64,000 nt of DNA from a virus: positions 38,605 to 102,604 of IMG/VR virus record IMGVR_UViG_3300031539_000008, one strand, 5' to 3'. A program made the translations under genes and the position numbers. The notes beneath the pieces are model-generated. The model was not told where the DNA came from. It worked only from the letters and a program-made list of their open reading frames with translations, and made no database searches. Shown in pieces: positions 18,319 through 35,961 of this stretch (positions within the stretch are counted from its first letter, which is position 1; the number at the start of each line of letters is the position of its first letter).

Positions 18319-18942
18319 CTACCCCTTCGGCCACTGTGATGGTGGAAGGGATAACTTCTCCTCCGCATCGAGAGACGCCCAGTTGGTACGATCGAACTCC
18401 TTGGCCATCTTGCTCAGCCAGGCGATGGCCGAACTCAGCGTCTTGGAGTCTCTTCGGGCCAGATATTCTCCCTCCGCCAAGATGATCGCCTCGTAGTGCT
18501 TGCTTCCCCACCGGTAGACGATCAGCTTGAACGGCCCCGTTGAGGCAGCGTAGTCCTGCTCGTAGACGTTCTCTGGGCTACCGTGGCGATCGGCCAAGCT
18601 ACGGTAGTAGTCGTACGCGGCCCCCTGAACCCCCTTGGACCCAGTGCCCCACATCAGGCGGTGGATGGATTCCTCGGTCTCCGTGCCTTCTGGATCGAGA
18701 TGCTCGTTGCCTTGCACAAGGTCGTCAGCCCACTCGGTGTTGCCGACGTACAGGTAGTACCTACGATCCCAGGGGAACAGATGCTCTCCGGGCCCGGAAG
18801 TTTGCGTCGGCTCTCCGCGCTCGATCTGGTACTTCCAGTCTGGGAAGCCAGGCACCCTGAATGAGCTGCGGTCCTTCTTCTGGCGAAGACCAATCGCCAT
18901 CGCACCAACGATGGCCATGCCCCAGATCAGTGGAAGTGGCAT
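18319..18942 (-). CDS. N-terminally anchored membrane protein
   Basis: MPLPLIWGMAIVGAMAIGLRQKK. Confidence 0.75.
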   Translation of the reverse strand: MPLPLIWGMAIVGAMAIGLRQKKDRSSFRVPGFPDWKYQIERGEPTQTSGPGEHLFPWDRRYYLYVGNTEWADDLVQGNEHLDPEGTETEESIHRLMWGTGSKGVQGAAYDYYRSLADRHGSPENVYEQDYAASTGPFKLIVYRWGSKHYEAIILAEGEYLARRDSKTLSSAIAWLSKMAKEFDRTNWASLDAEEKLSLPPSQWPKG

Positions 18943-19298
18943 CAGTCCTCCATGTCCTCGACCATCTCCTCGATGACCGTACGCTTGACAACGGGCGGCT
19001 TGGGTGCCAACGCCGGAACCGCTATCGTTCCGGCACCAGTCGTCGCGTTGAGCATGAGGCGCTGCGCAGCCTCCCCGGTCACAACGACCCCTTCGGCCTC
19101 GTTCTTCTTCTTGAACATGCGCTCCAGGACGCGGATGGCGAAGAATCCACCCGTCGCCGTGGCGGCGCCCATGAGGGCTCCGGCCCAGAAGGAGCTGCGG
19201 TCTCGCGATGTCTTGGCTGCGGTCTCACCTACACCGCGCGCCTGTCTCCGTTCTTCACGGCGCTTGCGCTGTTCTGGAGTGGAGTAGAGCGATGCCAT
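18942..19298 (-). CDS. Membrane protein
   Basis: FWAGALMGAATATGGFFAI TM segment; coupled to neighbour. Confidence 0.7.
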   Translation of the reverse strand: MASLYSTPEQRKRREERRQARGVGETAAKTSRDRSSFWAGALMGAATATGGFFAIRVLERMFKKKNEAEGVVVTGEAAQRLMLNATTGAGTIAVPALAPKPPVVKRTVIEEMVEDMED

Positions 19299-19307
19299 GG
19301 TCCTCGC

Positions 19308-19508
19308 CTATTCTGGGTCCCGCCCGAGTAGACCTCGGCCGATTTCTCGGCGCTCTTGGATGCGGTTGATCATGTCCCTGCCGACACCTGATGGGCTCGC
19401 CAGGCGCTTCTGGATCTCCTCAGTGGATAGCCCTTGGTCAACCCACTTGAGGATCTGGTTCACGAGTTCCAGTGCAGGATACACGATGGGGGCGAGTGGG
19501 GTGGTCAT
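19308..19508 (-). CDS. Hypothetical protein
   Basis: 66 aa, ATGA overlap. Confidence 0.55.
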   Translation of the reverse strand: MTTPLAPIVYPALELVNQILKWVDQGLSTEEIQKRLASPSGVGRDMINRIQERREIGRGLLGRDPE

Positions 19509-20611
19509 GCGGCTTCCTTTGCAGTCTTTGCGAGGCAGAACGCCAGGTTGGTCTCGATGCGCGGTCGCTGCAAGGCAGGGAGGCCATCGTTGGCCAGGAG
19601 TGCCTCGTTGGCCTGCCGTGCTTCCGCGTACCTACCGACCCAATATGCGGAAATCGCGTAGGCGTCCAACGCCATCCAGGTGTAGGCGGCATCCTCGACG
19701 TACAGGAGGTCTCGCTTCGGATAGGGGAGGTCGCGTGCAGCGCAGGCGTACACGTGTGCCATCGCGTATGCCTTGCTTTGTCGACACAGGGCAGAGAGTG
19801 CGACGAGCGGTTCTGACCGCTGCGGATTAGAGCGGTAAGCGGACAGGTATGAGGCGGCGACCACTTCATCCGTCGCTCCCGACCGGGCCTGGAGGACGCC
19901 GATCTGGTAGAGCGAGAACCACACCTCCTCGTACCATCCTACCATTTCGGCGCGCCTCCGATACCAGACGATGGCGCTTTCCAAGTCGCCGATGTCACGG
20001 TAGCTCTGCGCGAGATAGAACGTCGCCCGACTGTTTAGCGGATTTTCCTCAAGCTCGGCATGAAAATTGGAGATGTCGGCCTGATACTTCCTTTTTGGAT
20101 CCGCGCTCCGTCGGCGCGCTCCGTCGGACGGATGGCTGATTCTGATGCCGTCGATGTTTTCGCTACGAAATCCCTCGCGGCAGTTCAGCGCGCTGTGGCT
20201 TTTCGACCGGTAGAACCATGGCTTATCCGCTCGGATGAGGGTCGGCATCCTCCATGAACTTCCGCTCATGGTGATCCTGGCGAAGTACGCGTCCTCTGAG
20301 AGGTCAGGCAGCGCGAAGCCATCGTCGATCTCCCAGACGTAGGCGGCGTCTGAGAACAGCAGAAAGTCAGCGTGCGGTCTGGCCAGCTCCAGGGCCTCAG
20401 TACGGTTGGACCCGAAGTCGCGCCATGGGCGCTCGTGCAGCTCGCCGGGAATGTGCCCCAGGATGGCCTGGATCTTCTCCTTCGTGTCGTCCGTGGAGCC
20501 CGTGTCCACGATGCACCAGGAGTCGATGAGGTGCTTGATGGGCCCAAGGCAGCGCTCGATGACAGCGCCCTCGTCCTTCACGATCATGTTTAGGCAGATC
20601 GTCGTCCTCAT
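19505..20611 (-). CDS. GT2 glycosyltransferase with TPR-like C-terminus
   Basis: TICLNMIVKDEGAVIERCL, IVDTGSTDDT, DFGSNRTEAL; FYLAQSYRD TPR-like region. Confidence 0.88.
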   Translation of the reverse strand: MRTTICLNMIVKDEGAVIERCLGPIKHLIDSWCIVDTGSTDDTKEKIQAILGHIPGELHERPWRDFGSNRTEALELARPHADFLLFSDAAYVWEIDDGFALPDLSEDAYFARITMSGSSWRMPTLIRADKPWFYRSKSHSALNCREGFRSENIDGIRISHPSDGARRRSADPKRKYQADISNFHAELEENPLNSRATFYLAQSYRDIGDLESAIVWYRRRAEMVGWYEEVWFSLYQIGVLQARSGATDEVVAASYLSAYRSNPQRSEPLVALSALCRQSKAYAMAHVYACAARDLPYPKRDLLYVEDAAYTWMALDAYAISAYWVGRYAEARQANEALLANDGLPALQRPRIETNLAFCLAKTAKEAA

Positions 20612-21210
20612 GTCCTGCCCACTCCAATCCAGTATCCGTACTGGGTCTGCAACCGTCTCACCCAAATGACCGTGAGTTCCTGGAAGCATGGTTGGTACCA
20701 CCTGGCTGCGTCTGAATACCCAGAGAAATAGCGCACGTGTGCGGGGTCGTCAAAGTTGGGGACCGAGAAGATAACCAGCTTCCCACTTGGGATTCGACGG
20801 ATGAACCCTTGGTCGTCGTCGATGTGCTCAAATACCTCGGTGGCGATCACGGTATCGAAATCCCGGTCGAATACTTCACCGTCGCGCATGTCTGCGACGG
20901 CAAACGCCTCGGCTGGAATCTTTCCGGCATTCTTCCGACGTGCGATTTCGATTGCCTTCGGGGAAAAGTCGATTCCCGCGTAGGCGATCTTCGGCAAGTG
21001 TTGATTCAGGCAGCCCGCGAGCTGCCCAGGCCCGCATCCTATCTCGTAGATGGAGCTGGCGTTGTTAGCCGCCAACACATCCACAATTCGCATCCATACT
21101 GGGAGGTAGGGCGAGCCCTGCCACGGGTGCGAGTACCAGGAACTCTGTTCGTACATCCGGTCGTAGTACGAGTCGTCGAGCGCCTGGCTAGCCGTCCCTG
21201 CCTTCGGCAT
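20608..21210 (-). CDS. Class I SAM-dependent methyltransferase
   Basis: IYEIGCGPG, GIDFS, TEVFEHIDDD. Confidence 0.88.
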   Translation of the reverse strand: MPKAGTASQALDDSYYDRMYEQSSWYSHPWQGSPYLPVWMRIVDVLAANNASSIYEIGCGPGQLAGCLNQHLPKIAYAGIDFSPKAIEIARRKNAGKIPAEAFAVADMRDGEVFDRDFDTVIATEVFEHIDDDQGFIRRIPSGKLVIFSVPNFDDPAHVRYFSGYSDAARWYQPCFQELTVIWVRRLQTQYGYWIGVGRT

Positions 21211-21217
21211 CGGTGAG

Positions 21218-22177
21218 CTACAACTCCCAGAGACCGGTTGCGCGCCACTGAAGGGTTGACCCTGTGATTCCGGATCCGACGCCTGGACGAACCTGGAGGC
21301 CGAGCAGATCTCCAACCCCGAAAATCGCGGAGATAGGTGAGAATGCGAACAACACGGGCACGCCCTCAACCATGGGGAAGGGTCCGCTCGTGGAGATCAC
21401 CAGTAGCGGAGGAACGGCCACCGGCAAGTGCGCGAACGCACCTGGCTGCACAGGGGCCACGTTTGGTGGGACGAGATCGAGCAGGTCAATGCTGACTCCG
21501 CTGAAGCTCCCGGCACCAGGGAGATTTTGCGCGAAGGACATGATGACGGCAACAAGGCGTCCAGCGCGATCGGGGATCCACTCCCAGATCGGCCCTGGCG
21601 GCGCAGTGGGCAGCGCTCCTGGGACCCCCAAGTTCCAGTCCGTGCCGAAGGTGAGGCGGAACGGGTCGGGGATTCCTTCTCCGGCCGCGTCGTTGGAGTT
21701 GGTGTGATGCGTGCGGTGCTCTTGGATAATCGGCCCGGTTGGCCCTGTTGGTCCGACACCGCCAGTGCTGCCAGCAGGCCCTGTTGGTCCGACACCGCCA
21801 GTGCTGCCAGCAGGCCCTGTTGGTCCGACACCGCCAGTGCTGCCAGCAGGCCCTGTTGGGCCGACACCGCCAGTGCTGCCAGCAGGCCCTGTTGGGCCGG
21901 TGACCCCTGTTCCGGTTGGTCCCGTTGGTCCCGCGACGCCGGTGCTGCCAGCAGGCCCTGTTGGGCCGGTTGGTCCGACGGGACCAGGACCTGTTGGTCC
22001 GGTCGGACCAACGCTGCCTGTTCCGCCGGTTCCGCCGGTCGGGCCTGTTGGTCCTGTTCCGCCGGTGACGCCCATGGGTCCGGTTGGTCCCTCTGGTCCG
22101 GTTGGTCCGGTTCCGCCGGTATCAACCCACTGCTTCCACGGAGGGCCACCACCAAATCCTTTGACTCTTTGTACCAT
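21218..22177 (-). CDS. Collagen-like fibre/spike protein
   Basis: About 130 aa of G-X-Y (GPT-rich) repeats, then a beta-rich head. Confidence 0.85.
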
Positions 22178-22201
22178 CGTCCTTGCGCCTCTCGTGGCGA
22201 G

Positions 22202-22606
22202 CTAGGGAACACCCTTGACTCGCGCGAAATACTGCCCCGCTTCCGGCGGCAGGTCGTCGACTATTTTCTGAACCTCACGCATCAGCTCGGCGAAATCCGG
22301 GTCCTTCCCAGTGGCGCGTGCCAGCCAGTACGTCCGCAGCAAAGCCACCGCGGACTGGACCGCTTCGGCCACCTTCGCGTCCGCGTCGTAGGTTGAGCCA
22401 AAACACTCCTCCATTTCGGGGGTCTTAGGCTCGTATCGGCTCTCGCACCTTTCCGCTTCAGATCGGTAGTAGCCGTCCCACGTCGTTTCGGCCGCTCGCA
22501 AGCCCTCTTCCGTGTAGACCACGGCCTTGTTGGCGGAATGAGCGCATCCCATGGTCAGCAAGATGCTGACCATGGCGCACTGTAACCGTGTGGTGCACCA
22601 ACTCAT
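22202..22606 (-). CDS. Probable lipoprotein
   Basis: Hydrophobic stretch ending in a lipobox-like TMG-C; helical body. Confidence 0.6.
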   Translation of the reverse strand: MSWCTTRLQCAMVSILLTMGCAHSANKAVVYTEEGLRAAETTWDGYYRSEAERCESRYEPKTPEMEECFGSTYDADAKVAEAVQSAVALLRTYWLARATGKDPDFAELMREVQKIVDDLPPEAGQYFARVKGVP

Positions 22607-22622
22607 GGCAGCGCGGACCGGA

Positions 22623-23091: not shown

Positions 23092-23874
23092 CTACGCGGC
23101 CTCGCTGTTGTCGTACAGCCAGTCGAGCAAATGGGTTGCGCCGGGGTAGTCGCCCTCTTCTGCGCGTTCCCACATGAAGTCCGGGTCGGTGCCCGTCTCG
23201 GCGAGGGCGCGGTCGAACCGCTCACGTGTCCCTGGGGATCGCTCATGCTCCTCGTTGTAGTCGTCGATGAGCGAGGACGCGGCCATGCCACGACGCACTG
23301 CCAGCCAGTTCTGATGCACAGGCGGCATCGCCTTGAACACGGGATTGCGGATCACTCGCTTCACGAAGTCGGCCAGCATCACCACCGACTCCAGCGGCTC
23401 AAACACGAGATGAGGAGACTGATCGGCGAACGGTCCGTGCACCCCTCCCGCCGAGAGACCGGTAGCCGGAAGGAAGCCGAACCATCCACCTGATCCGAAA
23501 CACCAGTAGCGCCAGTCGTATGGGTTGTCGCCGTAATAGCCGCGACCGACGGCGCCCTTCCACAAGTTGCATGCCGCCTTGGCCTCGTTGTCAGCGCCCT
23601 TGGTCCCGGTGCGCAGCTTCACGTTGGGCGGCATCGCGCCGTAGTCGATTCCAAGTCCGACTAGATTCTTTCCTCCAGATTCCGTGTATGCCACGGCGGG
23701 CGCGAAGGCTGAAAAGCCGGGAAGGGCACCTGTGGCCTCGACCCATTCGGCCCAGGCCTGCGCATCTTTGAGCCCCCCGCTCAAAGATGCAGTAGACACC
23801 TTACTCTTGCTGCCGCGGCGGCGCCCTCCCCCTGCAAAGAGCAGGGCGGCGCCGCCGAGAAGCAGGAGTGGCAT
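23092..23874 (-). CDS. Membrane-anchored lysozyme-like/transglycosylase protein
   Basis: MPLLLLGGAALLFAGGGRRR anchor; AVAYTESGG catalytic Glu-like motif and SGGWFG. Confidence 0.55.
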   Translation of the reverse strand: MPLLLLGGAALLFAGGGRRRGSKSKVSTASLSGGLKDAQAWAEWVEATGALPGFSAFAPAVAYTESGGKNLVGLGIDYGAMPPNVKLRTGTKGADNEAKAACNLWKGAVGRGYYGDNPYDWRYWCFGSGGWFGFLPATGLSAGGVHGPFADQSPHLVFEPLESVVMLADFVKRVIRNPVFKAMPPVHQNWLAVRRGMAASSLIDDYNEEHERSPGTRERFDRALAETGTDPDFMWERAEEGDYPGATHLLDWLYDNSEAA

Positions 23875-23878
23875 GGCG

Positions 23879-24262
23879 CTAGCCACTGTCACCCTCGGAG
23901 GCGGGCGTTGTCTTGCGCTTGCGCTTCTTTCCCCGGAAGCTGGCGCGTTGCAGGCCGCCTAGCAGTCCCTGGACTGCGCGGCCGGCGAAGGCCGCCACGA
24001 GATCGTCGGGGTCCTCGTACTCATCGTCTCCGTCTCCGTCTCCGTCGTCATCCTCATCGGCCTCAGCGCGGCGAGATGTCTTCGTCTTCGTCTTCGTCTT
24101 CGGTCCCGGCTCGACTTCCATGGTCGGTATGTTCGGGTCGCTGGCGAGGCCCTTGACTGTCTCCCACAGCTCCTCCGCGGAGGAGCATATGTGGACATCC
24201 CCACCTGGGTCAGTCACGACCATGGTTTCGCCGTTTTTGGATTGGCGGATGTCGATCAGCAT
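23879..24262 (-). CDS. Acidic hypothetical protein
   Basis: 127 aa with KT and DG runs. Confidence 0.7.
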   Translation of the reverse strand: MLIDIRQSKNGETMVVTDPGGDVHICSSAEELWETVKGLASDPNIPTMEVEPGPKTKTKTKTSRRAEADEDDDGDGDGDDEYEDPDDLVAAFAGRAVQGLLGGLQRASFRGKKRKRKTTPASEGDSG

Positions 24263-24315
24263 CGGACACCCCCGATTCGATTGGCGTTGTCGAGTAGCAT
24301 GGCCGGGATTCTACC

Positions 24316-24981
24316 CTACCCGCCCGGCTGCTGCTGAAACTTCACCCAGGGGAATGGGCCGTCTGGCGAATAGAGGCCGTAGTAGGCCATCGAGGCGGCG
24401 ATGCTCGCGTCGCTGACGGTGGCAGACTCGAAAATTACCTCGCCGCTGTCCTCGTCGATCACGCGCGAGAAGTATCCGCCGAGGTCGTCGTCTGGCAGGA
24501 CGCACCAGCGGCGTCCGGGCTCCATGACCTCAAGCGGATCCAGCGTGTCGTCGATGGACTCCCACTGCTCAGTGGCCTCGTTGTAGGCCAGCCAGTCGAA
24601 GGGGCCCGGCTCCGCGTCATCGCACGCGCCCGCGGGCGGCTGGAACTGCGTCTGCGGATCCATGCTGTCCGCCATCTCCTCCAGAGCCGTCAGGACCTCC
24701 TCCATCGAGTTGGCCATCGGCCCGGATGTCCAGTTGCCGTCGAGAAGCAGCTCCCCCACGTACTTGGCGGTGCCGCTCGGTGTCGACCAGACTCGGTACT
24801 GGTAGGCCGTTCCGCCCTCGGACTCGATCTCACCCTCATCGACGATTTGGTCCTGATCCGCGGATCCGTTTCCTGATCCGGTCTGATCCGTGGATCCGTT
24901 TTGCGCACCGTAGCCGCGCTTCTTGCGTCCGAGGGCCATCAACACGATTGCGCCGATAGCGAGTGGGATGACAGCGTTCAT
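24316..24981 (-). CDS. N-anchored acidic membrane protein
   Basis: MNAVIPLAIGAIVLMALGRKKR. Confidence 0.75.
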   Translation of the reverse strand: MNAVIPLAIGAIVLMALGRKKRGYGAQNGSTDQTGSGNGSADQDQIVDEGEIESEGGTAYQYRVWSTPSGTAKYVGELLLDGNWTSGPMANSMEEVLTALEEMADSMDPQTQFQPPAGACDDAEPGPFDWLAYNEATEQWESIDDTLDPLEVMEPGRRWCVLPDDDLGGYFSRVIDEDSGEVIFESATVSDASIAASMAYYGLYSPDGPFPWVKFQQQPGG

Positions 24982-25508
24982 CGGATCATCCTCGCGAGCA
25001 GCCCCTCTGGGAGAGACCTGGGAAGTGTGGTTGACGCATATTGTACGCCCATGTCGTACCCATGCTGCATGGCCATCTGCATGGCCGTTTCTGAAAACGT
25101 CTGCTCGGAGAATATCATGGCGGCTGCCGGCCATGGGTCGCCCAGAGAACACCTGGGATCCGTCGCCAGCCTGGTTACTTCTTCGGCGTAAGCGCGTGCG
25201 AAGTCGATGTTGTCAGCCATGACCCCTGGGGCCGGGCCAAGTGCCTTGCGCAACACAACCAGCGTGGAATCTGGCGACGCCGCTTCCTCCGGGGTCATGG
25301 GGAACCCAAGATTGGTCATCCCCTTCGCCGCCAACTGGGCCACCCTGGCAAGCAAGCGGATGGCCTCCTGCTGTGTCTGCGGTGTGTACTGGATGGGGTT
25401 GCACTCAGCGTCAATGAAGTAGATGGACCCACCGCCTCCGCCCTTGGCCTTACCCTTGGCCACGGCTAGAAGCGCCGCGCCGCCAGCGATCAGGAGCCAG
25501 GGACTCAT
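24978..25508 (-). CDS. N-anchored membrane protein
   Basis: MSPWLLIAGGAALLAVAKGKAK. Confidence 0.75.
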   Translation of the reverse strand: MSPWLLIAGGAALLAVAKGKAKGGGGGSIYFIDAECNPIQYTPQTQQEAIRLLARVAQLAAKGMTNLGFPMTPEEAASPDSTLVVLRKALGPAPGVMADNIDFARAYAEEVTRLATDPRCSLGDPWPAAAMIFSEQTFSETAMQMAMQHGYDMGVQYASTTLPRSLPEGLLARMIR

Positions 25509-26029
25509 CCGAACGCCCCAGTCTCCGCGTCGTAGCGGATGTCCTTGATCCCACGCGCAGACAGCCCCGCGTTGACCATCTCCGCGATGCGGAGCAGCGC
25601 GTCGCGGTAGGGCAGGTACTCCTCCGGACAGGTGACCTCCAGGATGCAGGTCGGCGGCAACATGATCGGCGCCCCCGCGTTGTACGGGTAGGCGCCCCAG
25701 TAGCTCACCCGCGTCATCCATCCGCTGAGCCACTCCCCGCCCACCGGGGTCACGAAGCCGTCCTGGGTCATGCCCGGTACGCCCGCGTCGATCCCGTCCT
25801 GGCCGAGGAATGGCCCGACAGTGGGCAGATTCTCCAGGGCGATGTCGACGTATCCGGCCTCCCGGTCAGCCTGCTCGGCGGTGTCGGCATCCGGGGCTGG
25901 ACCTGGGCCGCCCTTCGGGAGCGTGCCGGTCACGTCGGTGACTCCACCCTTGCCGCCGTTTTTTGCGCGTCGACCGAGCATGACCATGGCACCGGCAACA
26001 GCGGCGAGATAGAAGATTGATTTGTTCAT
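25505..26029 (-). CDS. N-anchored membrane protein
   Basis: MNKSIFYLAAVAGAMVMLGRRAK. Confidence 0.75.
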   Translation of the reverse strand: MNKSIFYLAAVAGAMVMLGRRAKNGGKGGVTDVTGTLPKGGPGPAPDADTAEQADREAGYVDIALENLPTVGPFLGQDGIDAGVPGMTQDGFVTPVGGEWLSGWMTRVSYWGAYPYNAGAPIMLPPTCILEVTCPEEYLPYRDALLRIAEMVNAGLSARGIKDIRYDAETGAFG

Positions 26030-26973
26030 GGGAGATTGTCCTCTGGGGAAAATGGAGCGCCGCCTACAACGTCCTCTTGGATTCGGTCGCTAATCCACCG
26101 ATAGAACTCTTTGACGTTTCCGCTCGACCACTTCTTGTCGTCCAGCACGCACTCAGGACTCAGCTCATGGATGATGGACCGCGCAATTTGCATAGCCTTC
26201 TCCGTTGGGCCCCATCCTCCGTCTGGTCCGTAGTTGTAGAGGTAGTCGGCATACCCCATCGCGCTGTTTCCGGGGATGGCCAGCGCCTGTGCCAGTGTCG
26301 GAGCCTCCATGGCCATGTTGGACCAGAATCTGCGCCCGACGAGGGCGCCACACGCAGGGGTGAGCCACGCGCTGTTACCCTCCCAGTCGAATGAGCGAGC
26401 CTGGATGATCAGACTGATGGCGTTCTGAACGACGTAGGCGTATGCCTCGGTGCTATTTTTGAGGTCCGCGGGAAGTTTACCCAAGTCCAGGTCGATCTCA
26501 TTTTTGCTTCCCATCGTTCGGTCCCAGTAGAACGGGACATTCCTGATGTCCACCGCGTACTCTCCGACCTGCCCCGTGACCCCTCCGTCCATGTATGACA
26601 CTCCCGACGGCGGCAACTGCTGAAGCACGAACTCGATGTCGGGATTGGAGATGGCGGCCGGATTGATGACTTGGCCAAGGAGCCCCCAGTCCTCTGAGGC
26701 ATCCTCCCATCCTCCCACCAGCGGGATGCTGGTGAAGATGTAGATGGCGGCGGTGGCAGTGTCCATGGTGGCGATGGGCGCGTCGTACGACCCACTCATT
26801 TCCCCTACGGACTCCCTCTGGATCGACACATTGTCGGGCAGCCAATAACCGTCGAATTCCCTGGATCCTTTGTGGCCGAGCTTCTTTGCCGTGCGCGCCG
26901 CACTCTTGCCTGCCGACTTCGTCACGACGACAGCGGCAGCGCCGACCAGCATCAGTGCGACCAGCGGGTTCAT
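26026..26973 (-). CDS. N-anchored membrane protein
   Basis: MNPLVALMLVGAAAVVVTKS; WLTPACGALVGRRFW. Confidence 0.78.
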   Translation of the reverse strand: MNPLVALMLVGAAAVVVTKSAGKSAARTAKKLGHKGSREFDGYWLPDNVSIQRESVGEMSGSYDAPIATMDTATAAIYIFTSIPLVGGWEDASEDWGLLGQVINPAAISNPDIEFVLQQLPPSGVSYMDGGVTGQVGEYAVDIRNVPFYWDRTMGSKNEIDLDLGKLPADLKNSTEAYAYVVQNAISLIIQARSFDWEGNSAWLTPACGALVGRRFWSNMAMEAPTLAQALAIPGNSAMGYADYLYNYGPDGGWGPTEKAMQIARSIIHELSPECVLDDKKWSSGNVKEFYRWISDRIQEDVVGGAPFSPEDNLP

Positions 26974-26974
26974 T

Positions 26975-27844
26975 TCAGCTAAACTCCTTGATCATGTCGC
27001 GCAGACGAATCCACGCCTGAATGTAGTCCTGGTGCCCGGGGTCATTTGGATCCAAAACCTCTGGCCCATCGGCGTACGCATGATGGAATGCCCAGTCGGT
27101 GCGGTCCTCCAGGTTGAGATTCTGATCCAGGGCCTTGTAGGCCCACTCCCGCTCATGCCACATCTGGGCCTCCAGCGGAAAGCGCTCCCTCCACGCCGCA
27201 TCCATGACCTGCATGGCAGGCTGGTACAGGTGGCGATAGAACAGCCGGTAGAGCGCGGGCTCCTGGGCCGAGAAGTCGGCGAACGCCTGGAGATAGGCGT
27301 CCCAGGACGGATAGTCCTGGACGACGGGGAGCTTGGCCGCGCACATCTCGTACACGCCCCCGTCGAAGTCGAACAGGTACTGCATCGCCCATCGTTTGGT
27401 GGGTGACTCAAACGGGGTCTCGCCCGCATCGAAGAGGATTTCGTCCCAGTGGTCGGGCGGCGATGACGCCAGCTCGGCGTCATCCTCAGCCACGGTGTCC
27501 ACGACGGAGTTGTAGAACTCCACGATGTCGTCCGTGATCAAAGGACGGAACTGCTTGCCCACGGCGTACGCCTTGCAGTCCTCAGATACCCACATGGTCG
27601 CAGGCCACTCCTCGGTGGTTACATCCTGCGGAAACTCGTAGCCGTCTGGCATCACGTAGTCCTCCAGCACGGCAAGAACCTGCTGGTTCTCTGGTGTGGG
27701 TGCAGGCTCTCCGTCTCCTCCGTCTCCTCCGCCGTTGGGCTCAGGGAGCGGTTCGGGCGGCGGAATTGGCTTGTGCTTCTTCTTGCCACCGGCCAGCGCC
27801 AGGAGCAGGAGTGCTCCACCTCCGATTATGATTCCTGGATTCAT
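26975..27844 (-). CDS. N-anchored membrane protein
   Basis: MNPGIIIGGGALLLLALAGGKKK; WVSEDCKAYAVGKQF. Confidence 0.8.
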   Translation of the reverse strand: MNPGIIIGGGALLLLALAGGKKKHKPIPPPEPLPEPNGGGDGGDGEPAPTPENQQVLAVLEDYVMPDGYEFPQDVTTEEWPATMWVSEDCKAYAVGKQFRPLITDDIVEFYNSVVDTVAEDDAELASSPPDHWDEILFDAGETPFESPTKRWAMQYLFDFDGGVYEMCAAKLPVVQDYPSWDAYLQAFADFSAQEPALYRLFYRHLYQPAMQVMDAAWRERFPLEAQMWHEREWAYKALDQNLNLEDRTDWAFHHAYADGPEVLDPNDPGHQDYIQAWIRLRDMIKEFS

Positions 27845-28605
27845 TAGAACTCGATCCCTCCCTCGTACTCGTCGATGGCGGATTGGATGTCTGCAACGGA
27901 CGCCGAGGTGATGAAGCTGAGGAGGAAGTCGAGCGCGGGGTACTCCTTGCGCCAGGCTCGGAAGCTAGCCTGCCACTGCGCTGCATTGGCACCTCCGGCC
28001 CCTGGAAGCGTCTCCGCGCATGCTGCTGCCGAAGGCGACGAATCTGCCAGCGCCTGGATGGCGAACCGCACGCTCATCGGAAGGTCGCTTGGGTAGATTC
28101 CAACCTCGGCATAGCTGTTGTAATCGCCCCATGAAGATGGCAGAGATTTGCTCACGTATGCCCCCGGAACCCTGGCCCCAACCTGACCTGCGAAATCGAG
28201 GACGATCGCGTTTGGCATCGTGTGGATGGGATCGCTCCCATCTCCGATTTCGGCCAGCATGGTCTGGTTGATGACGTTCCACTTGAGCAGGTTTTCTTCC
28301 TGCGCCATCCACTGGTAGGGGCTGAGCGCTCCGACTGTCGGAAGCCAGTTTTGGCCCATCACGAACGCTTGGCAGTCATCGGAGACCCACAGATCGTTGG
28401 AGGTCATGCCGTCTGGAATCTGCTTCCCGTATCCGCCACCCTTGGGCAGCCAGCCAGACTTGCTTCCACCTGGGATCGGGTCCGTCTTGTTCGGATCGTC
28501 TGGATCGATCAGCGGCTTGAGGGGACCGCCGCCGTTCTTCTTCTTCCCTCCGAGGAGGGCGAGGAGCAAAAGACCTCCGCCGACGATGACTACTGGTTCT
28601 GGCAT
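27844..28605 (-). CDS. N-anchored membrane protein
   Basis: MPEPVVIVGGGLLLLALLGGKKK; WVSDDCQAFVMGQNW. Confidence 0.8.
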   Translation of the reverse strand: MPEPVVIVGGGLLLLALLGGKKKNGGGPLKPLIDPDDPNKTDPIPGGSKSGWLPKGGGYGKQIPDGMTSNDLWVSDDCQAFVMGQNWLPTVGALSPYQWMAQEENLLKWNVINQTMLAEIGDGSDPIHTMPNAIVLDFAGQVGARVPGAYVSKSLPSSWGDYNSYAEVGIYPSDLPMSVRFAIQALADSSPSAAACAETLPGAGGANAAQWQASFRAWRKEYPALDFLLSFITSASVADIQSAIDEYEGGIEF

Positions 28606-28625
28606 GACGTTCTCCTTGCGACACT

Positions 28626-29216
28626 CTAGCCGCTTATTTCTGGGAATTGAAGTTGACCACTCTGGTTGAAGTAGGCGATGGCCTGCTCGACGTAGCTCTG
28701 CACGTAGTCGGCAAGTTGGGTCATAGCCTCGGGGACGGATCCGCCCGGATCAGCATCCGGCCCGAGTTCCTCGCTCAGCGGCAGCTTGCACAGCGTGCCG
28801 ACAGACGAGATTTCGTTGGTGGCATAGGCGACGGGAGAGTTTGCCACGAGAAGGTGAGCGACGACTACCGCGGAGAGATTCTCCTCTGCTCCGTACAGTG
28901 CGGTCTGATCCTCAGCGTTGGGTTGCGGCTGTGCGCCGATGGCTTCGACGATCTCGACAAGTGCCGGAAGCGCGTACCCACCAAACCATGCACTCTCGTT
29001 CGGCAGGATAGTCCAGACCTCGCACATGCCGCCCACGGAGATCTGCGGGGGCCCATCCTCGGAGGGTGTGCAAGACCGCTCGTTTTCGTCCCAGTGGAAT
29101 CCGACCGGGCATTCAGACGGCTGCGGGGGAAGCGGGGGCGTTTTCTGCCCCTTCTTCTTGCCCTTGGCTAGAAGCATCGCACCGCCGTAAAGAAGGAGTA
29201 GCGTGACCGGTTCCAT
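28626..29216 (-). CDS. N-anchored membrane protein
   Basis: MEPVTLLLLYGGAMLLAKGKKK; CPVGFHWDENERSC module. Confidence 0.78.
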   Translation of the reverse strand: MEPVTLLLLYGGAMLLAKGKKKGQKTPPLPPQPSECPVGFHWDENERSCTPSEDGPPQISVGGMCEVWTILPNESAWFGGYALPALVEIVEAIGAQPQPNAEDQTALYGAEENLSAVVVAHLLVANSPVAYATNEISSVGTLCKLPLSEELGPDADPGGSVPEAMTQLADYVQSYVEQAIAYFNQSGQLQFPEISG

Positions 29217-29219
29217 GAC

Positions 29220-30083
29220 TCACTTCTTTCGGGATAGGATGAATACGCCAACGCCGAGGGCCAAAAGGACTACGCCTGGAGTCTTCCGCAGTGCACCTGT
29301 GATTCCTTTCAGAATTGCGAATATGTCAGCCAGGATCCCCGCGATGTCTTCGGCCGCCCTTTCGATTTTTGCGAAGACCTGATCTTGTTCTTCCAGTGCT
29401 CCGTCGAACAGGCCATCGTCGATAGCGGCGATGATCCAGAACTCGCGTCGCATCTCCAGCTCGTGCTCCAGGGCAACGATGACTTGGTTGATCAGCGAAA
29501 GCGCAAAGAGGTAGTCGGGGCCAGTGCAGCTCGGCGCATGGATGTCCGACCAGAAATCCTGGCAGGCGTTGTAGTCCCAGAAGAACAGCGGGCCTTCCAG
29601 GTTGTTCTCCACGTGCTCCCATGCCTGCTCGGTCATCTCGCGCGGATCAGGCATCTGGACGATGCCTCCGGCGAGAACGGGGAACATGGGTCGGTACACG
29701 TTCTCGTAGCGCAGGGTGATGTTCTCCAGGTCCGCATCGAGCTGCTTGAGGCCTTGCTCCCCAAGGCTAACCTGGGCCCGGTATCCGCGTACGCGAGCCA
29801 GGGTCGATCCCAGGCCGTTGACCGTATGCGCCAGTAGCTTGAGGCGGCTCTCCCTCGCCTGCATGAGCAGGCCGTCCACGGTCACCATCAGCTCAGTCGC
29901 CTCGGCGATCTTTGACAGATCTACCTCGCTCAGGTTTGGCGCGGTTTTGGCCTGCGAGATCATCGAGCGAGCGAGGCGGGCCTGGTCCTCAGACTTCTCC
30001 TCAACTGCGACGAGGTTTCGATACAGCTTCTTCGTCCGCGCAAACAGACCGCCAGCGTCGATGGTGTAGGCGCTACTCGCCAT
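29220..30083 (-). CDS. Helical protein with C-terminal TM anchor
   Basis: Ends PGVVLLALGVGVFILSRKK. Confidence 0.75.
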   Translation of the reverse strand: MASSAYTIDAGGLFARTKKLYRNLVAVEEKSEDQARLARSMISQAKTAPNLSEVDLSKIAEATELMVTVDGLLMQARESRLKLLAHTVNGLGSTLARVRGYRAQVSLGEQGLKQLDADLENITLRYENVYRPMFPVLAGGIVQMPDPREMTEQAWEHVENNLEGPLFFWDYNACQDFWSDIHAPSCTGPDYLFALSLINQVIVALEHELEMRREFWIIAAIDDGLFDGALEEQDQVFAKIERAAEDIAGILADIFAILKGITGALRKTPGVVLLALGVGVFILSRKK

Positions 30084-31128
30084 GACCCCTCGCCATCATC
30101 CCGGGAGGCGGGGTGATACCGTTGCTTCCGTCGGACCAGGAGACGCCAAGGGTAGTGACGACGCCAGCTCCCAGGCTTGCTTCGTTCAGCTTGGGGAGCC
30201 ACACGGTGGGCCGATCATCTCCCCACGGCGTGGGCTCGGCGCCAGGGAGTTCGTGGTCGTCGTCCCAGGTGGTCGGAAGGTCATTCGCCGGCGAGCAAAC
30301 GATCAGGGAGACGTACTGCGCCACATCCTGCTCAGAGGGCTGGCCAATAGCCGTTAGCGCCGCACGGGCGATTCCATGGATGGTCTCGTCGCCCTCAACC
30401 GTGTGGAAGACGCCGTGTGCGACCTTGTTGTCGGTCGGATGATAGGCGTAGGGATCCGGCCGCCGTCGCATCACCCGCTTGCGCCGGAGTGTCAGCGACC
30501 GCCGAGGTGCCTCTGCCTGCGGAGGCATGGGCGTTGCTCGACCAATACGCGGCGATGGCTCCTCACGCTCGGGCTCACTCTCCTCTTCCTCGTCAGCATG
30601 CCCGTCCGCATCGCCGTCGCCGTCGCCGTCGCCGTCCTCCTCGATTTCCTCGATTTCCCGCTCGCGAGCATGGGACGTGGCATCATCTGCGATGCGTTCT
30701 TCCTGGGCGGCCAGTAGGGTGTTCACGCGCAAGCGGATGCGCTTGTAGATCATGGTGGCGCCAACGTCCCGGTCGCCATCGCGCAACTCTGGCGGCCATG
30801 GGAACTCCATGCCGGTCACCGGATGGATGGGATAGATAGTTTTTGCCACGGCCAGCGTCAGCCGATCAGGATCGGGCTCGCCCTTGTCCAGCAGTTCCTG
30901 GGCGACCTCGCTCACACGATGCGGCTGCCAGGGGAAGGTGGTCCAGCTCTGCTTGATCCGTCCGTTTCCACCCTTGACGCGACTGTGAGTCCTACGCGCA
31001 GGTCGTCTCAGCGTTCGCCGTGAAGACGCATCCGCAGTCTTGCCGGCGACACCCCTACGCTTGCCTCTGCTGTGTCCCTTTTTTCCGGCGAGAAGAAGCG
31101 CGCTTCCGATGACGAGAAAATGGATCAC
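30073..31128 (-). CDS. N-anchored protein with LysM-like C-terminal segment
   Basis: GTG start MIHFLVIGSALLLAGKK; FHTVEGDETIHGIAR...VWLP. Confidence 0.65.
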   Translation of the reverse strand: MIHFLVIGSALLLAGKKGHSRGKRRGVAGKTADASSRRTLRRPARRTHSRVKGGNGRIKQSWTTFPWQPHRVSEVAQELLDKGEPDPDRLTLAVAKTIYPIHPVTGMEFPWPPELRDGDRDVGATMIYKRIRLRVNTLLAAQEERIADDATSHAREREIEEIEEDGDGDGDGDADGHADEEEESEPEREEPSPRIGRATPMPPQAEAPRRSLTLRRKRVMRRRPDPYAYHPTDNKVAHGVFHTVEGDETIHGIARAALTAIGQPSEQDVAQYVSLIVCSPANDLPTTWDDDHELPGAEPTPWGDDRPTVWLPKLNEASLGAGVVTTLGVSWSDGSNGITPPPGMMARGHGE

Positions 31129-31841
31129 GTAAAGCCTCCTGGTTGCGCCCACGGTGGTGGGGTGCCCGACAACTTCGCGAGCAGTGAACTTGGCGGATTG
31201 CGTCCCGATGGCGGGCAGACGATCTGGGCCGGGACTGCACCCATGCCGGGAGCACGTGCTGACGGCGCTTGCTGGATCGCCGGCAGCCACAGCAGTCCGA
31301 AGTTGGTGCGTTGAGATGGCGGGGTGAAAGTGGTGTCCTTCACGGGCCATCGCGCAGCGTGCAGGGACTTGAGCGCGTCTGGATTCTGCTTCTCGAAAGC
31401 CAGAGACGCACTGATGCCGCCGACTACGGTGTTACCGCTGTCGGGTACGCCGTAGTAGTAGCGATTCCAGTCGCTGCTGTTGATGCACCTTGCGTACGCG
31501 GTCACTTGCTGCGCCGTCATAGTGGGGACGCCGAAGATGGCCATGGCGGCCACCGCATCGACCAGCGCGCGATCAACCTCCAGGTCAGCAGCGGACACCG
31601 GATAGAACGTGCCGAAGACCGGCTGGCCAGGATTCGACAGGGGCACTTGAAGCTGAGTCCCTCCGTTTCCGTTTCCGTTTCCGTTTCCGTTTCCGTTTCC
31701 GTTTCCGTTTCCGTTTCCGCCGCCAGACGATCCACCGCCACCGCCACCGCCACCGCTACCTCCCGTCGTGGATGATCCTCCGCGTCGTCCGAGTGCGGCA
31801 GCGGCAAGGAGTCCGAGTCCGAGAATGACGATCGGTTTCAT
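31125..31841 (-). CDS. N-anchored protein, (GN)n linker, domain related to previous gene
   Basis: MKPIVILGLGLLAAAALGRR; GTFYPV...LLWLP. Confidence 0.7.
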   Translation of the reverse strand: MKPIVILGLGLLAAAALGRRGGSSTTGGSGGGGGGGGSSGGGNGNGNGNGNGNGNGNGNGGTQLQVPLSNPGQPVFGTFYPVSAADLEVDRALVDAVAAMAIFGVPTMTAQQVTAYARCINSSDWNRYYYGVPDSGNTVVGGISASLAFEKQNPDALKSLHAARWPVKDTTFTPPSQRTNFGLLWLPAIQQAPSARAPGMGAVPAQIVCPPSGRNPPSSLLAKLSGTPPPWAQPGGFT

Positions 31842-32281
31842 CTGGCACCTCTTGGGCAACGGCATACGCCGCGTTTCACGTCTTCGCTCGGGTCGTATCG
31901 CATGTTGTCGCTGACGACGTAGGCGTGGTACGCCTGGTCAATCGGGCGCCCGTAGTGATCGTACTGCTGCTCCAGCACGACGTAGGCTGGACGGTTGAGG
32001 TGGTAGCGAATCCAGGCGGCAAGGTACGCCGACATATCCGCGCACGTCCCAACTTTCTCCTCCAGCAGCTTGTCCGCCGCCAATATGACCTGGCAGAAGT
32101 CCTCGCTGCGACACATCATCGGGTCAACGTACTCAACCCCTGCGTGGAGCAGGCAGCAGGGCGTGTTGGGGTCGAGGCCGAAGAAGATCTGATTGTGCTG
32201 GACTAATCCCTCTAACATCGCCTCCAGCATCTGTACCGTGGACTGGCCGTTGAGCGACCGGAAGCGAAAGCGGAGTTGCAT
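31838..32281 (-). CDS. Transglutaminase-like cysteine protease (putative maturation protease)
   Basis: GTCADMSAYLAAW...HAYVV...YDPS gives a Cys-His-Asp triad in transglutaminase order. Confidence 0.7.
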   Translation of the reverse strand: MQLRFRFRSLNGQSTVQMLEAMLEGLVQHNQIFFGLDPNTPCCLLHAGVEYVDPMMCRSEDFCQVILAADKLLEEKVGTCADMSAYLAAWIRYHLNRPAYVVLEQQYDHYGRPIDQAYHAYVVSDNMRYDPSEDVKRGVCRCPRGAR

Positions 32282-32297
32282 ATCATCGCCGACCACA

Positions 32298-33188
32298 TCA
32301 AAACTCCAAGTGCCAGACGTACGTGTAGAATCGACCAACGCCGGTCGTATTGACGCTGGCAACGCCGGCGGCATTTCCAGGGCGGTCTGACAGACAGCTC
32401 ACGTTTGCACAATCCAAGGAGAAGGGGACGGGGGAGATCAGGCCTGTCGGTGGGGCGCTCCCGGTCGGGTCGCCGAACTCCACCCAGTTGGCTGCGTTCG
32501 GGATACCCGGCGCTGGTCCAGGTGTCGAGATGCGAACGCCCACGGCTCCTGGTGGGCACGGCACGAATACGGGCGTCGCATCGGGGAGGGAGAACGTCTG
32601 CGTGAGCAGGGCCTCTCCTCGGACCGGGGCGAAGCTCTCCTGCACGGATGCCCTGATGATGGTATCGAGAAATAGCCCGGGTCCGTCCATGGACTGCGGA
32701 AGAGTCCCTTGGGGTGTCGAGCCTCGGACGCTGATGCACTCCGGCGGAGTGATGATGTTCAGCTCAAGCGAACAGGAGTGCGCAGAGATGCGCATGCCCG
32801 CGCCAATGTCGAAAACCGCGCGTCGGCCGATCCCTGCTTGATGCCAGGATACGGCCGCCCAGAGCTTGGAGCATGGCAGTCCCGAGCCCTGGATGACCGC
32901 AGGCGGGAGAGGTGAGGCAGAGTTTCCAACGAGCACCTGCCGCATGACCTCCAGGGCATTGATCTCTGCGGTCCACCAACGAGGCTCGGCGCAGCTTCCA
33001 CTGGGCCCACTGACGTACGCATCCATGCTCACCCGCGGGTTGATGGGCGACTCCATGGGCGTTTGGTTCGTATCGACCGGATTCGTGCCCCACCGGCACA
33101 GAAACTGCCGAGTCATCGACTGAGTCGGCGGAGTGCACTGGCCAGCGTAGGCACCGGGTGCAGATGGCTGGCGTGAGTTGAATGGCAT
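32298..33188 (-). CDS. Putative beta-rich capsid/vertex protein
   Basis: 296 aa, alternating hydrophobic strands, directly downstream of the capsid candidate. Confidence 0.5.
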   Translation of the reverse strand: MPFNSRQPSAPGAYAGQCTPPTQSMTRQFLCRWGTNPVDTNQTPMESPINPRVSMDAYVSGPSGSCAEPRWWTAEINALEVMRQVLVGNSASPLPPAVIQGSGLPCSKLWAAVSWHQAGIGRRAVFDIGAGMRISAHSCSLELNIITPPECISVRGSTPQGTLPQSMDGPGLFLDTIIRASVQESFAPVRGEALLTQTFSLPDATPVFVPCPPGAVGVRISTPGPAPGIPNAANWVEFGDPTGSAPPTGLISPVPFSLDCANVSCLSDRPGNAAGVASVNTTGVGRFYTYVWHLEF

Positions 33189-33250: not shown

Positions 33251-33949
33251 CTACGCCAGGACGTTGCACCACAGCACGACGAAGAAGTGGATGTTGCTGG
33301 TGACGACGATGTTGTCGAAGAAGATCTGAAGCTCCTGACCGTTCTGCGAACGGAAGGGGGCCCAGTCGACACACACCGGCTCACGAGTCGCTGCGAACGC
33401 AGCGCTGTTGAGCCCGTTGCCGATCCCGCGAGCACGGAGCTGCGAGTTTCCGCCGATGGTCACGTTCGTGACCACGGTGGGAAGCTCGATCACCGGGTTG
33501 GCGATCAGGTTGTTCGCATCCGGGGCGGGAGCCGCCTCGAAAGCCGTGAACCAGATGGCCACCGCCTGCAACGCCACGGCGTCGAAGTTGGTGATCAACA
33601 GGCTTGAGCCACCCGCCGTGCCAGGCACGACCGGAGCCGTTCCGAGCGTGGTCGCGCCGATCAGGTCGCAATCACACAGGAACTCCTCCGGACACGGACC
33701 GCCGACGGGAGCCCCGAGCGGCAGATCGTTCTGACCGGGGAACCGACAGGACGGATCCTGTGAGTTGTTCGCGCCCATGCCCTGAAGGCGACCGCTGCGA
33801 GGAATGGGGAACGCCCGTCCCCGCCCGGGTTGGCTGCTGCCGGCACCGCGACGAGCGCCGATCATCAGATCGGAGAAGGTCTCGGCTTCCTTGTTGAGCT
33901 TCTTGCTCTGCTTGAGAGCGTTCATGTAGCCATCCAAATGTGCGGACAT
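33251..33949 (-). CDS. Candidate single jelly-roll major capsid protein with N-terminal propeptide
   Basis: Basic N-terminus to LQGMGA, then about 140-aa beta-rich domain (VVTNVTIGGNSQL...LQIFFDN...FFVVLW); second gene of operon, followed by terminator. Confidence 0.55.
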   Translation of the reverse strand: MSAHLDGYMNALKQSKKLNKEAETFSDLMIGARRGAGSSQPGRGRAFPIPRSGRLQGMGANNSQDPSCRFPGQNDLPLGAPVGGPCPEEFLCDCDLIGATTLGTAPVVPGTAGGSSLLITNFDAVALQAVAIWFTAFEAAPAPDANNLIANPVIELPTVVTNVTIGGNSQLRARGIGNGLNSAAFAATREPVCVDWAPFRSQNGQELQIFFDNIVVTSNIHFFVVLWCNVLA

Positions 33950-34139: not shown

Positions 34140-34520
34140 TTAGGTCGCTTCCAGCGCCATCTGCTTGCCGTAGTTGCCAGCCCAGAGCGAGAGCGCTCCC
34201 ATGCCAGCAGCGCGGGCCGCACCGCTCATCTTCTTACCGGCCATGCCGGTAAGCCCGACGCCAGCGAGTGCAACGCCGACCAAAAGGTCGATGTCGACGC
34301 CGAACATCTTGAGGTCTTCCTCGGTTCCACCATCACGCTCGATGGTGCCCATGTAGTAGCCCACGCCGAAGGCGGTTCCGCCCGCCAGCGCGATCTCCAT
34401 GGTGTTTTCCGCGGCCTCTTTGGCCTTGTCCTTGTAGCGCCGGGCACGTGCAGCCATCCGCTGGAATCCGTCGACCAGCGTATCCTTGTCCAAGCGCTTG
34501 AGTTCGGTGGCGTCTGCCAT
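34140..34520 (-). CDS. Multi-TM protein, putative major internal-membrane protein
   Basis: Three Gly-rich hydrophobic segments; first gene of the structural operon; GAGGA RBS. Confidence 0.7.
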   Translation of the reverse strand: MADATELKRLDKDTLVDGFQRMAARARRYKDKAKEAAENTMEIALAGGTAFGVGYYMGTIERDGGTEEDLKMFGVDIDLLVGVALAGVGLTGMAGKKMSGAARAAGMGALSLWAGNYGKQMALEAT

Positions 34521-34642
34521 GTTGTTTCGTCCTCGTAAGTCCGCAGCGTTGCTGCCGGGGTTGGTTTTGGTGTCTGCGCCTGCGGCGCGGGTGAAACGAT
34601 GGACCAACGCTGCCGGAAACTTGCGGACGTTGCAAGTACCAA

Positions 34643-34658
34643 TGCAAAGCGCATGCCA
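34643..34658 (-). promoter_or_regulatory. Sigma54-type -24/-12 promoter
   Basis: Minus strand TGGCATGCGCTTTGCA, exact GG-N10-GC spacing, upstream of the structural operon. Confidence 0.65.
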
Positions 34659-34737
34659 TGCACTTTTGCAATCGGCGTATAACTATGCGGAAATACTTGT
34701 TGCGCAACTGATCACAACCCGATTTGATGCGCAACTG

Positions 34738-35961
34738 ATGGAACCGGACGAACTCTTCGACCCAGTGGACGTGGACCCGAGCATCCCTGACAAGCTCGTT
34801 GACCGCACTCTCAAGTACCTGCCCGCCCTCATCCGCGTCGATGTCGAGCGCAAGCGAGGCACGAACAGTTGGAAGAAGGTCAACGGCTTCAAGGTCGACA
34901 GCGATGCGAGTGGGGAGCCGGATGCAAGTGCTGAACGTGTCTGCGGAATGATCGTGATGATCGCCCAGAGCGACCACGAACAGGACGGTGGCACTCAGCA
35001 CTACCGCGCGAAGTACCACATCAAGGTCAAAAACGGCCAAATCCAGCGCAAGACGTTTGCGTTCAAGCTCTCGGACGATTCCGACGAGGCTGAGCCAACA
35101 ATGGACAGGCTGGAGGAGCAGGAGGTTTTGGCCGTGGCATTCGACCGCGCCATCGCACTGATTGAGATCCAAAACCGCCATATTGATAGCTGCTACTCAC
35201 AGATGCTGACGCAAGGGCAAACGCAGGCTGGCCAAACAGCGCCGCTATTGCAGACCATCGAGACGCTCGTGAGCAAATACCACGAGGGTCTGAACATGCA
35301 GGCGAATGCACTGCAAGCCGTATCGGAGATGGAACGCAGCAGCAAGGAGGCTGAAATCAAAGGTGAGCGCGATCGTGCCATTCTCGACATGCTCGCCGCC
35401 GCAGCGCCGGCCTTCGCAAGTCAGCTCGGCGCATACTTTGGCAAGCGCAAGGAGGACGCTCCAGGAGTGGATGCTCCGGTGGAAACGGCGACCGTCACCC
35501 AACAGCCTATCGAGCGCGTGAGGCCAACACGTCCGCCACACCGCGCACCGCAACCACGAGAAGAAGAAGTCGACCAACCAACCTACGATCCAGTACAGGA
35601 CAGCGAAGACATGGCCGCCAAGGAAGCAGAAGAAAACCCACTCACGCTGTTCGCGCACTCGTTCCGCGACAGCATTCTCTCGGAGCAGTGGCTCTCACTG
35701 GGCGAAGCGTTGACCAAACAGGAGATGAAACTCCTCAAGGACGCAACCACCGCGGAAAACGACGTGGACACGTCCGCGGGCATCATCGCCTTCAAGGACT
35801 CGCTGCGTCCGACCAAATACCTGCGGCTCAACCGCATCCTCGACCCTGAGCAGCGCGAGATGATTATGAAACTGCTGGAAGTAATCGACGAGTACACGCC
35901 TGATGACCCAGAGGATGACGAAGACGAGGAGGAAGAGGAGACGGAGGAAGAGACCGAGTAG
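34738..35961 (+). CDS. Helical hypothetical protein with acidic tail, divergent from structural operon
   Basis: About 407 aa from ATG 34738; no Walker motifs seen. Confidence 0.75.
   Translation: MEPDELFDPVDVDPSIPDKLVDRTLKYLPALIRVDVERKRGTNSWKKVNGFKVDSDASGEPDASAERVCGMIVMIAQSDHEQDGGTQHYRAKYHIKVKNGQIQRKTFAFKLSDDSDEAEPTMDRLEEQEVLAVAFDRAIALIEIQNRHIDSCYSQMLTQGQTQAGQTAPLLQTIETLVSKYHEGLNMQANALQAVSEMERSSKEAEIKGERDRAILDMLAAAAPAFASQLGAYFGKRKEDAPGVDAPVETATVTQQPIERVRPTRPPHRAPQPREEEVDQPTYDPVQDSEDMAAKEAEENPLTLFAHSFRDSILSEQWLSLGEALTKQEMKLLKDATTAENDVDTSAGIIAFKDSLRPTKYLRLNRILDPEQREMIMKLLEVIDEYTPDDPEDDEDEEEEETEEETE

Follow-up and report, generated by a model that had tools for sequence, protein, structure and literature searches.

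How might a bacterial virus whose genome measures 102.6 kb or more fill a tailless shell when no packaging motor can be recognized among its genes? The question is raised by the IMG/VR virus record IMGVR_UViG_3300031539_000008, a 102,604-bp contig whose final 64 kb (bases 38605-102604; "the window," to which all positions refer unless a contig position is named) are preceded by another 38.6 kb (contig 1-38604). Within the window, positions 18319-35961 are filled by closely spaced minus-strand ORFans that form one operon; most likely these genes are the central part of the operon for virion morphogenesis in an uncultured virus of bacteria whose genome reaches at least 102.6 kb. At a probability of roughly 0.5, we read it as the virion module of a new tailless, membrane-containing bacterial virus with a jelly-roll shell and with no packaging motor on the 102.6 kb. 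The combination consists of tailed-phage-like replication genes, coat candidates from an uncharacterized family of at least 137 clusters, and no motor near the coat genes. Because the GC content is ~62%, genes were called with a codon-position model; the contig holds ~178 genes, and no tRNAs were found on it.

Does any part of the contig encode a recognizable packaging motor, or the head and tail of a tailed phage? Profile scans against Pfam (~165 open reading frames [ORFs]) and PHROGs (~89 ORFs), which covered the whole contig, gave no match to terminase, portal, HK97 capsid, or FtsK/A32 families and none to tube, sheath, tape-measure, or baseplate families. Searched in six frames, the contig gave zero matches to Terminase_6N, TerL_ATPase, FtsK_SpoIIIE, Pox_A32, Phage_portal, and Phage_capsid, with control genomes positive; Phage_portal was the portal family covered in six frames, and the other portal families were covered by the per-protein scans. 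No profile of an HK97-fold capsid matched the contig, on which structure models were made for two proteins only. Matches in the head, tail, and packaging categories were confined to fiber, head-decoration, and collagen-type domains, plus a single weak match to a "tail protein" (E = 7e-5). A six-frame Walker-A scan located a canonical P-loop in a 479-residue AAA protein (GPYGCGKT) and a deviant form in a DnaB-family helicase, and nowhere else on the contig. An initial annotation of the window had recognized no terminase, portal, HK97 capsid, tail, or FtsK/A32-type protein, and these searches bear it out; they extend the negative to the rest of the contig (38.6 kb), in which no terminase, portal, or packaging ATPase gene was found. 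Three proteins were considered for the missing role and set aside: the DnaB-family protein, whose residues 67-417 align with replicative helicases; the AAA protein, an early-region product of a protein-unfoldase clade; and, as a terminase, an 811-residue protein with helix-turn-helix (HTH) domains only and no P-loop.

What, then, would the shell be built of? The initial annotation had pointed to beta-rich capsid candidates at 33251 and 32298 and had proposed structure prediction for both. AlphaFold2 (AF2) modeled each as a jelly-roll sandwich; both coat candidates are accordingly predicted to be jelly-roll proteins, and their nearest viral look-alikes in the model comparisons appear to be coats of icosahedral viruses with an internal membrane. 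The 296-residue protein, present at full length in relatives, was modeled as all-beta with two beta-sandwich halves (predicted local distance difference test [pLDDT] 74, predicted template modeling score [pTM] 0.65). Its best Foldseek matches in the PDB were the STIV turret jelly-roll proteins (E = 2e-4, probability 0.99) and P3 of PR772/PRD1 (E = 6e-4 to 1e-3). A three-copy prediction scored 0.55 by ipSAE against 0.00 for the best control, with run agreement of at least 48% and partner pLDDT of at least 69; among reference cases, 20 of 30 solved pairs and 1 of 23 single chains reached that mark. The protein is predicted to associate as a homo-oligomer. A profile search of 1.84 billion representatives placed it in a family of at least 137 clusters (250-370 residues), none with a Pfam or PDB sequence match, and ESM Atlas look-ups scored below 0.9 and were uninformative.

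The second coat candidate, of 232 residues, begins with a pair of helices, continues through a variable linker that is rich in Gly and contains G-[MV]-G, and ends in a conserved, Cys-containing C-terminal domain (residues ~87-232). The mean pLDDT of its AF2 model is 66; the C-terminal domain is modeled well, as a beta-sandwich (single jelly-roll), and Foldseek returned no match to the model under E = 1e-2. There are 25 metagenome relatives, with 47-82% identity, on contigs reaching 91.6 kb. An alignment of the two coat families with hhalign detected no relation between them. The linker motif, R/x-G-[MV]-G-[AQN], is conserved in the family alignment (A1) and also occurs in small basic proteins encoded at 5346, 6277, 14497, 15499, and 10574; it may be a processing site.

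Are the genes around the coat candidates those of a virion module? The operon is rich in membrane proteins (Table 1). An N-terminal hydrophobic helix followed by a Lys/Arg/Gly patch occurs in 10 of the 20 genes in 18319-32000, compared with 4 of 158 elsewhere on the contig (Fisher P = 2e-8), in agreement with the many transmembrane proteins first noted here. None of the proteins in the run from 23092 to 31841 has a Pfam or PHROG match, and the majority are conserved and syntenic in three related metagenome loci (L005, L006, and L009). The first gene of the operon, for a 126-residue protein, is the most conserved of the module (77-85% identity across seven related loci) and matched nothing in the Pfam and PHROG family scans. 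The divergent 407-residue protein, syntenic in L003, L004, L005, and L009 at 55-63% identity, has no Pfam, PHROG, or PDB sequence match, and its ESM Atlas look-ups also scored below 0.9; its composition suggests a scaffold-like protein. The annotated fiber was recovered as the collagen-repeat protein of 319 residues, a candidate receptor-binding spike. The protein of 123 residues at 22202-22573 (minus strand) begins MVSILLTMGC, a lipobox-like N terminus that suggests a lipoprotein within the late operon.

Next to the coat genes is a Cys/His-rich protein of 152 residues, for which a protease function had been proposed. It is 65-74% identical in relatives, in which G-T-C-A-D-M-S-A-Y, H-A-x-V, and Y-D-P-S-E are invariant; this Cys/His/Asp pattern makes a papain-fold protease plausible. 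The family match is sub-threshold, however (one ortholog), so that the proposal is only weakly confirmed.

Table 1. Coordinates of the late operon and of other features in the 64-kb window
Feature	Position	Strand	Evidence or remark
407-residue acidic, mostly helical protein with poly-Asp/Glu tail	34738..35961	+	Divergent from late operon
126-residue membrane protein, first late-operon gene	34140..34520	-	Hydrophobic segment
232-residue candidate penton or second coat protein	33251..33949	-	AF2 model
296-residue all-beta candidate double jelly-roll-like major coat protein	32298..33188	-	Halves ~22-187 and 190-296
152-residue Cys/His-rich protein	31838..32296	-	Candidate transglutaminase-like (papain-fold) maturation protease
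Run of membrane proteins, candidate virion-membrane proteins	23092..31841	-	Nine N-anchored
N-anchored, lacking acidic body	31125-31841	-
N-anchored, acidic bodies	28626-29216, 27844-28605, 26975-27844, 26026-26973	-
N-anchored, acidic bodies (continued)	25505-26029, 24978-25508, 24316-24981, 23092-23886	-
C-terminally anchored membrane protein	29220-30083	-
Soluble acidic proteins	30073-30915, 23879-24262	-
319-residue collagen-repeat fiber with globular C-terminal domain	21218..22177	-	Pfam Collagen 8.4e-9; PHROG tail-fiber/collagen-like, best 3e-20
S-adenosylmethionine (SAM) methyltransferase	20608..21210	-	Pfam methyltransferase families, best 4e-14
GT2-type glycosyltransferase with tetratricopeptide repeats (TPR)	19505..20611	-	phrog_13126 beta-1,4-glycosyltransferase 3e-27
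207-residue N-anchored membrane protein	18319..18942	-	End of studied region
DnaB-family replicative helicase	36061..37332	-	Pfam DnaB_C 1e-20; PDB DnaB 4e-14, residues 67-417
AAA ATPase, Cdc48/p97 D2-like, early region	51677..53116	-	Pfam AAA 3e-19; PDB 1e-36
454-residue protein, isoelectric point 11.8, 35% Lys+Arg, (KKKAT)n tracts	8872..10236	-	Candidate DNA-condensing core protein
Basic-protein block: RadC, 811-residue HTH protein, DUF5661 protein	1340..17614	-	Pfam; candidate packaged cargo

How widespread is this arrangement? Eight metagenome loci share the gene order DnaB, divergent 407-residue protein, 126-, 232-, 296-, and 152-residue proteins, and anchored proteins. Outside these loci, megablast of the studied region found no match among GenBank phages, and the two coat candidates, run by tblastn against 50,697 GenBank phage records, gave none at E ≤ 1. 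Scans of IMG/VR with a single protein, the coat alignment A1, the alignment A11, and the distant family members P0054 and P0047 gave no relatives, and neither did the coat-protein and protease alignments in 185,579 GTDB species genomes. Sequence searches of the PDB returned nothing meaningful for the 811-, 152-, 264-, and 407-residue proteins or for profiles A7 and A11. RecT was used in tblastn for host assignment; its matches lie in phages of many phyla and give no host signal.

Several points weigh against a jelly-roll virion module. The fold-match scores of both coat candidates lie at the noise ceiling, a level that the search tool itself calls common; TM-scores (template modeling scores) of the 296-residue model against double jelly-roll coats are only 0.2-0.27; and the fold search against BFVD returned a weak mix of capsid, tail-fiber, and minor-tail proteins. 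The protease assignment leans on a PF01841 (Transglut_core) match of E = 0.022 in the ortholog at L003:4664-5116, which is below threshold and spans the Cys-His region. Relatives of the coat and protease genes are missing from GenBank phages, IMG/VR, and GTDB, so the module has no experimental anchor. Finally, ~29% of the genome (~40 kb) may lie off the contig.

Could the operon have nothing to do with virions? It might instead encode a group of secreted or cell-envelope proteins on an integrative element or defective prophage, with the jelly-rolls as ordinary beta-sandwich binding modules: matches to carbohydrate-binding, GOLD, and pilus proteins equal those to capsids, an integrase is encoded on the contig, and the "virus record" label is a software call. 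The operon, however, follows the replication module, as in phage gene order, and is flanked by endolysin, spikes, RecT/YqaJ, and RusA; the coat and protease alignments have no relative in the GTDB species genomes, contrary to what a chromosomal envelope locus would give; and self-assembly of the 296-residue protein is predicted. We regard a non-virion function as very improbable. From ~54,000 down to 1,340 almost every gene of the window is on the minus strand, and the order of transcription runs from recombination and other early genes through a replication block, which ends with the DnaB-family helicase, to the 18319-35961 region and then to a block of basic proteins. YqaJ (at 55529) and RecT (at 58464) lie on a divergent plus arm; together with DnaB they uphold the earlier assignment of tailed-phage-type replication genes. 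Contig 1-38604 (loci L001 and L002) carries small plus-strand early genes, a tyrosine integrase, Dam, a sigma-70 factor, an M15 endolysin, several spike-like proteins, an Fe/Mn superoxide dismutase, thioredoxin, a dual-specificity phosphatase, and a chagasin-type peptidase inhibitor. Judged by gene content, the phage-type lysis, recombination, and integration genes show the element to be viral.

How complete is the contig, and what could its missing part hold? IMG/VR labels the record "linear," CheckV estimates its completeness at 71%, and the 102,604 bp have no terminal overlap and no direct or inverted terminal repeats. These data contradict the suggestion that the window is a nearly complete circle; the small plus-strand genes at its left end, taken as a clue to circularity, run on into 38.6 kb more of virus-like genes. 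Because ~29% of the genome may be off the contig, the absence of a motor holds for 102.6 kb alone and not for the whole virus. The CheckV estimate, in turn, has no close relatives as its basis, because scans with two late-operon genes (coat and protease) gave no IMG/VR relative.

The off-contig portion is where a ~145-kb tailed phage would keep its terminase, portal, HK97 capsid, and tail genes, the contig being a fragment of it. The jelly-rolls would then be decoration, cement, or receptor-binding proteins, and the host envelope would be the target of the anchored proteins. A linear record at 71% completeness with no end repeats leaves room for a motor gene or a head-tail module; the genes for replication, recombination, and lysogeny belong to the kind that temperate tailed phages carry; fiber proteins match PHROG tail-fiber families; and minor-tail and tip-attachment proteins are among the weak BFVD matches. 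Yet the 102.6 kb and ~178 genes in hand include lysis genes, at least four spikes or fibers, and a long late operon, and among them the head, tail, and packaging matches amount to the fiber, head-decoration, and one weak tail-protein domain described above. No large untagged ORFan is TerL-like, since none has a P-loop; a conserved jelly-roll pair with a protease and ten anchored proteins corresponds to no known tailed-phage arrangement; and the completeness estimate that opens the gap has no IMG/VR relative of the coat and protease genes behind it. We consider a tailed phage doubtful.

A tailless jelly-roll virus might also have a motor after all, either elsewhere in its genome (of A32/FtsK type) or in the form of the AAA protein, the DnaB-family hexamer, or a host translocase. 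The contig is probably incomplete, and most jelly-roll double-stranded DNA (dsDNA) viruses, indeed nearly all those described, carry a homologous packaging ATPase (PMC8328091). A structural protein of the phage SSIP-1, gp40, has a canonical Walker A; the contig has genes for an AAA ATPase and for a hexameric helicase with the RecA fold; and in all relatives the DnaB gene, the last of the replication module, directly borders the late operon. Known viruses of this type, however, keep the ATPase beside the coat genes, where no P-loop ORF was found either on the contig or in the related metagenome loci (L003-L009), and within ~10 kb around the coat genes of four relatives there is no P-loop packaging enzyme. 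The clade and early location of the AAA protein and the replicative alignment of DnaB also argue against their use in packaging. A motor of this sort seems unlikely.

Which known viruses does the module resemble? The nearest structural matches are of the PRD1 and HCIV-1 types, which are several times smaller and have a packaging ATPase. Tectiviridae (PRD1 and PR772), with genomes of ~15 kb, and other Bamfordvirae resemble the contig in an adjacent gene for a single jelly-roll protein (on the contig, a candidate), a series of membrane proteins of small to medium size, and spikes. Unlike them, this virus has a genome of at least 102.6 kb, and its contig has no A32/FtsK ATPase and no inverted terminal repeats and carries temperate tailed-phage-type replication and recombination genes; no protein-primed polymerase was detected on it. 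There is no sequence similarity, and TM-scores to P3 are ~0.2. The Halopanivirales (HCIV-1, HHIV-2, SH1, and P23-77) have genomes of 17-31 kb and two single jelly-roll coat proteins, and like the contig they have two adjacent genes for beta-rich coat proteins or candidates beside membrane proteins. They differ in the packaging ATPase beside their coat genes, and they show no sequence similarity to the contig. A block of two single jelly-rolls plus ATPase, as in Halopanivirales or SSIP-1, was not what we found: the 296-residue coat candidate has two sandwich halves, and no ATPase accompanies it.

SSIP-1 (JN880423; 43,788 bp, circular) is the largest cultured tailless, membrane-containing dsDNA phage, and it shares with the contig this proposed architecture, a large genome for its kind, and an almost wholly ORFan gene content. 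By tblastn no contig protein matched SSIP-1 (all E > 0.01). Two coat protein types have been reported for it (PMC6356626). The Walker A of its gp40 (L011, 24775-25737) reads GEKGSGKS, in a gene that the record annotates merely as "structural protein."

In proposed mechanism, by analogy, the nearest virus is SPV1 of the Portogloboviridae, in which jelly-roll proteins form a shell around a membrane and a basic protein condenses the DNA of the core; it infects an archaeal host and has a genome of ~20 kb. To our knowledge, SPV1 has no packaging ATPase. The contig, from a virus of bacteria, likewise encodes candidate jelly-roll, anchored, and lysine-rich proteins, with no motor on its 102.6 kb; it is a weak structural match to SPV1, with no sequence similarity.

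How might a tailless, motorless virion of this kind be assembled? From the genes alone, we infer an icosahedral particle without a tail. Its shell would consist of jelly-roll proteins, the 296-residue two-sandwich protein forming trimeric capsomers and the 232-residue single jelly-roll protein serving as penton or second coat protein. The shell would lie over a lipid membrane carrying approximately ten N-anchored proteins, attachment would occur through collagen-type and other spikes, and the 152-residue putative transglutaminase-like cysteine protease might trim Gly-rich linkers. The genome would first be condensed by very lysine-rich proteins (the 454-residue protein at 8872-10236 and its neighbors), and membrane and shell would then form around it, the route proposed for SPV1, instead of a finished shell being filled by pumping. 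We favor condensation followed by enclosure because no P-loop packaging enzyme occurs on the contig or in ~10 kb around the coat genes of four relatives. Assembly around condensed DNA had been suggested at the outset; the strongly lysine-rich proteins fit it, but the packaging route itself is one that we infer. The accompanying proposal of a new tailless, membrane-containing lineage gained from the jelly-roll coat candidates and from the lack of a motor in the other 38.6 kb, whereas the argument from a circle and completeness was wrong.

What might do the condensing? The 454-residue protein, which has no Pfam or PHROG family match, resembles histone H1 or chlamydial Hc1, and Lys tracts are found too in its neighbors at 3801, 8180, 12933, and 17616. 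Many members of the basic-protein block combine Lys tracts with a common C-terminal basic amphipathic tag, which ends ~15 otherwise unrelated proteins (..ILRKAMRGT, ..LRRMMKL, ..RLMRI), among them RadC, the sigma-70 factor, and the 811-residue HTH protein. Tags map to 1340-17614 and 24978-25508 in the window and to contig 8651-15535 (L001). By composition, the Lys-rich proteins and the tags would fit a nucleoprotein core with packaged cargo. A fuller version is tentative and, in our estimate, stands on the doubtful side: a motorless bacterial virus of at least 100 kb whose jelly-roll shell and internal membrane enclose DNA precondensed by histone-H1-like lysine-rich proteins, with ~15 enzymes and regulators (sigma factor, RadC, a kinase-like protein, and others) loaded by means of the C-terminal amphipathic tag. 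We know of no motorless assembly of large DNA virions of such a kind in bacteria.

What would follow if a tailless jelly-roll lineage of at least 100 kb exists? The size range of this architecture in bacteria would more than double (from 43.8 kb), and the entry of a large genome into a shell without a motor would become directly testable. Standard virus-detection markers would be overlooking a whole group, the coat proteins having no relatives in IMG/VR or GenBank phages. We found no account in the literature of a bacterial jelly-roll virus of ~100 kb.

Some features of the window touch on other aspects of this virus. The AAA protein of the early region (51677-53116) has 200 N-terminal residues of no recognized kind and is an odd gene for the early region of a phage. 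Short tandem-like repeats at 55149-55308 and 58252-58359, with copies 81-84% identical, lie in or near the intergenic region from which leftward and rightward genes diverge, and they may be origin or operator sites. Repeats also occur at 5564-6740, where a 123-bp repeat (5814-5936 and 6148-6270; 95% identity) and an 81-bp repeat go with paralogous small genes starting MSDTDLGAGIGGL.

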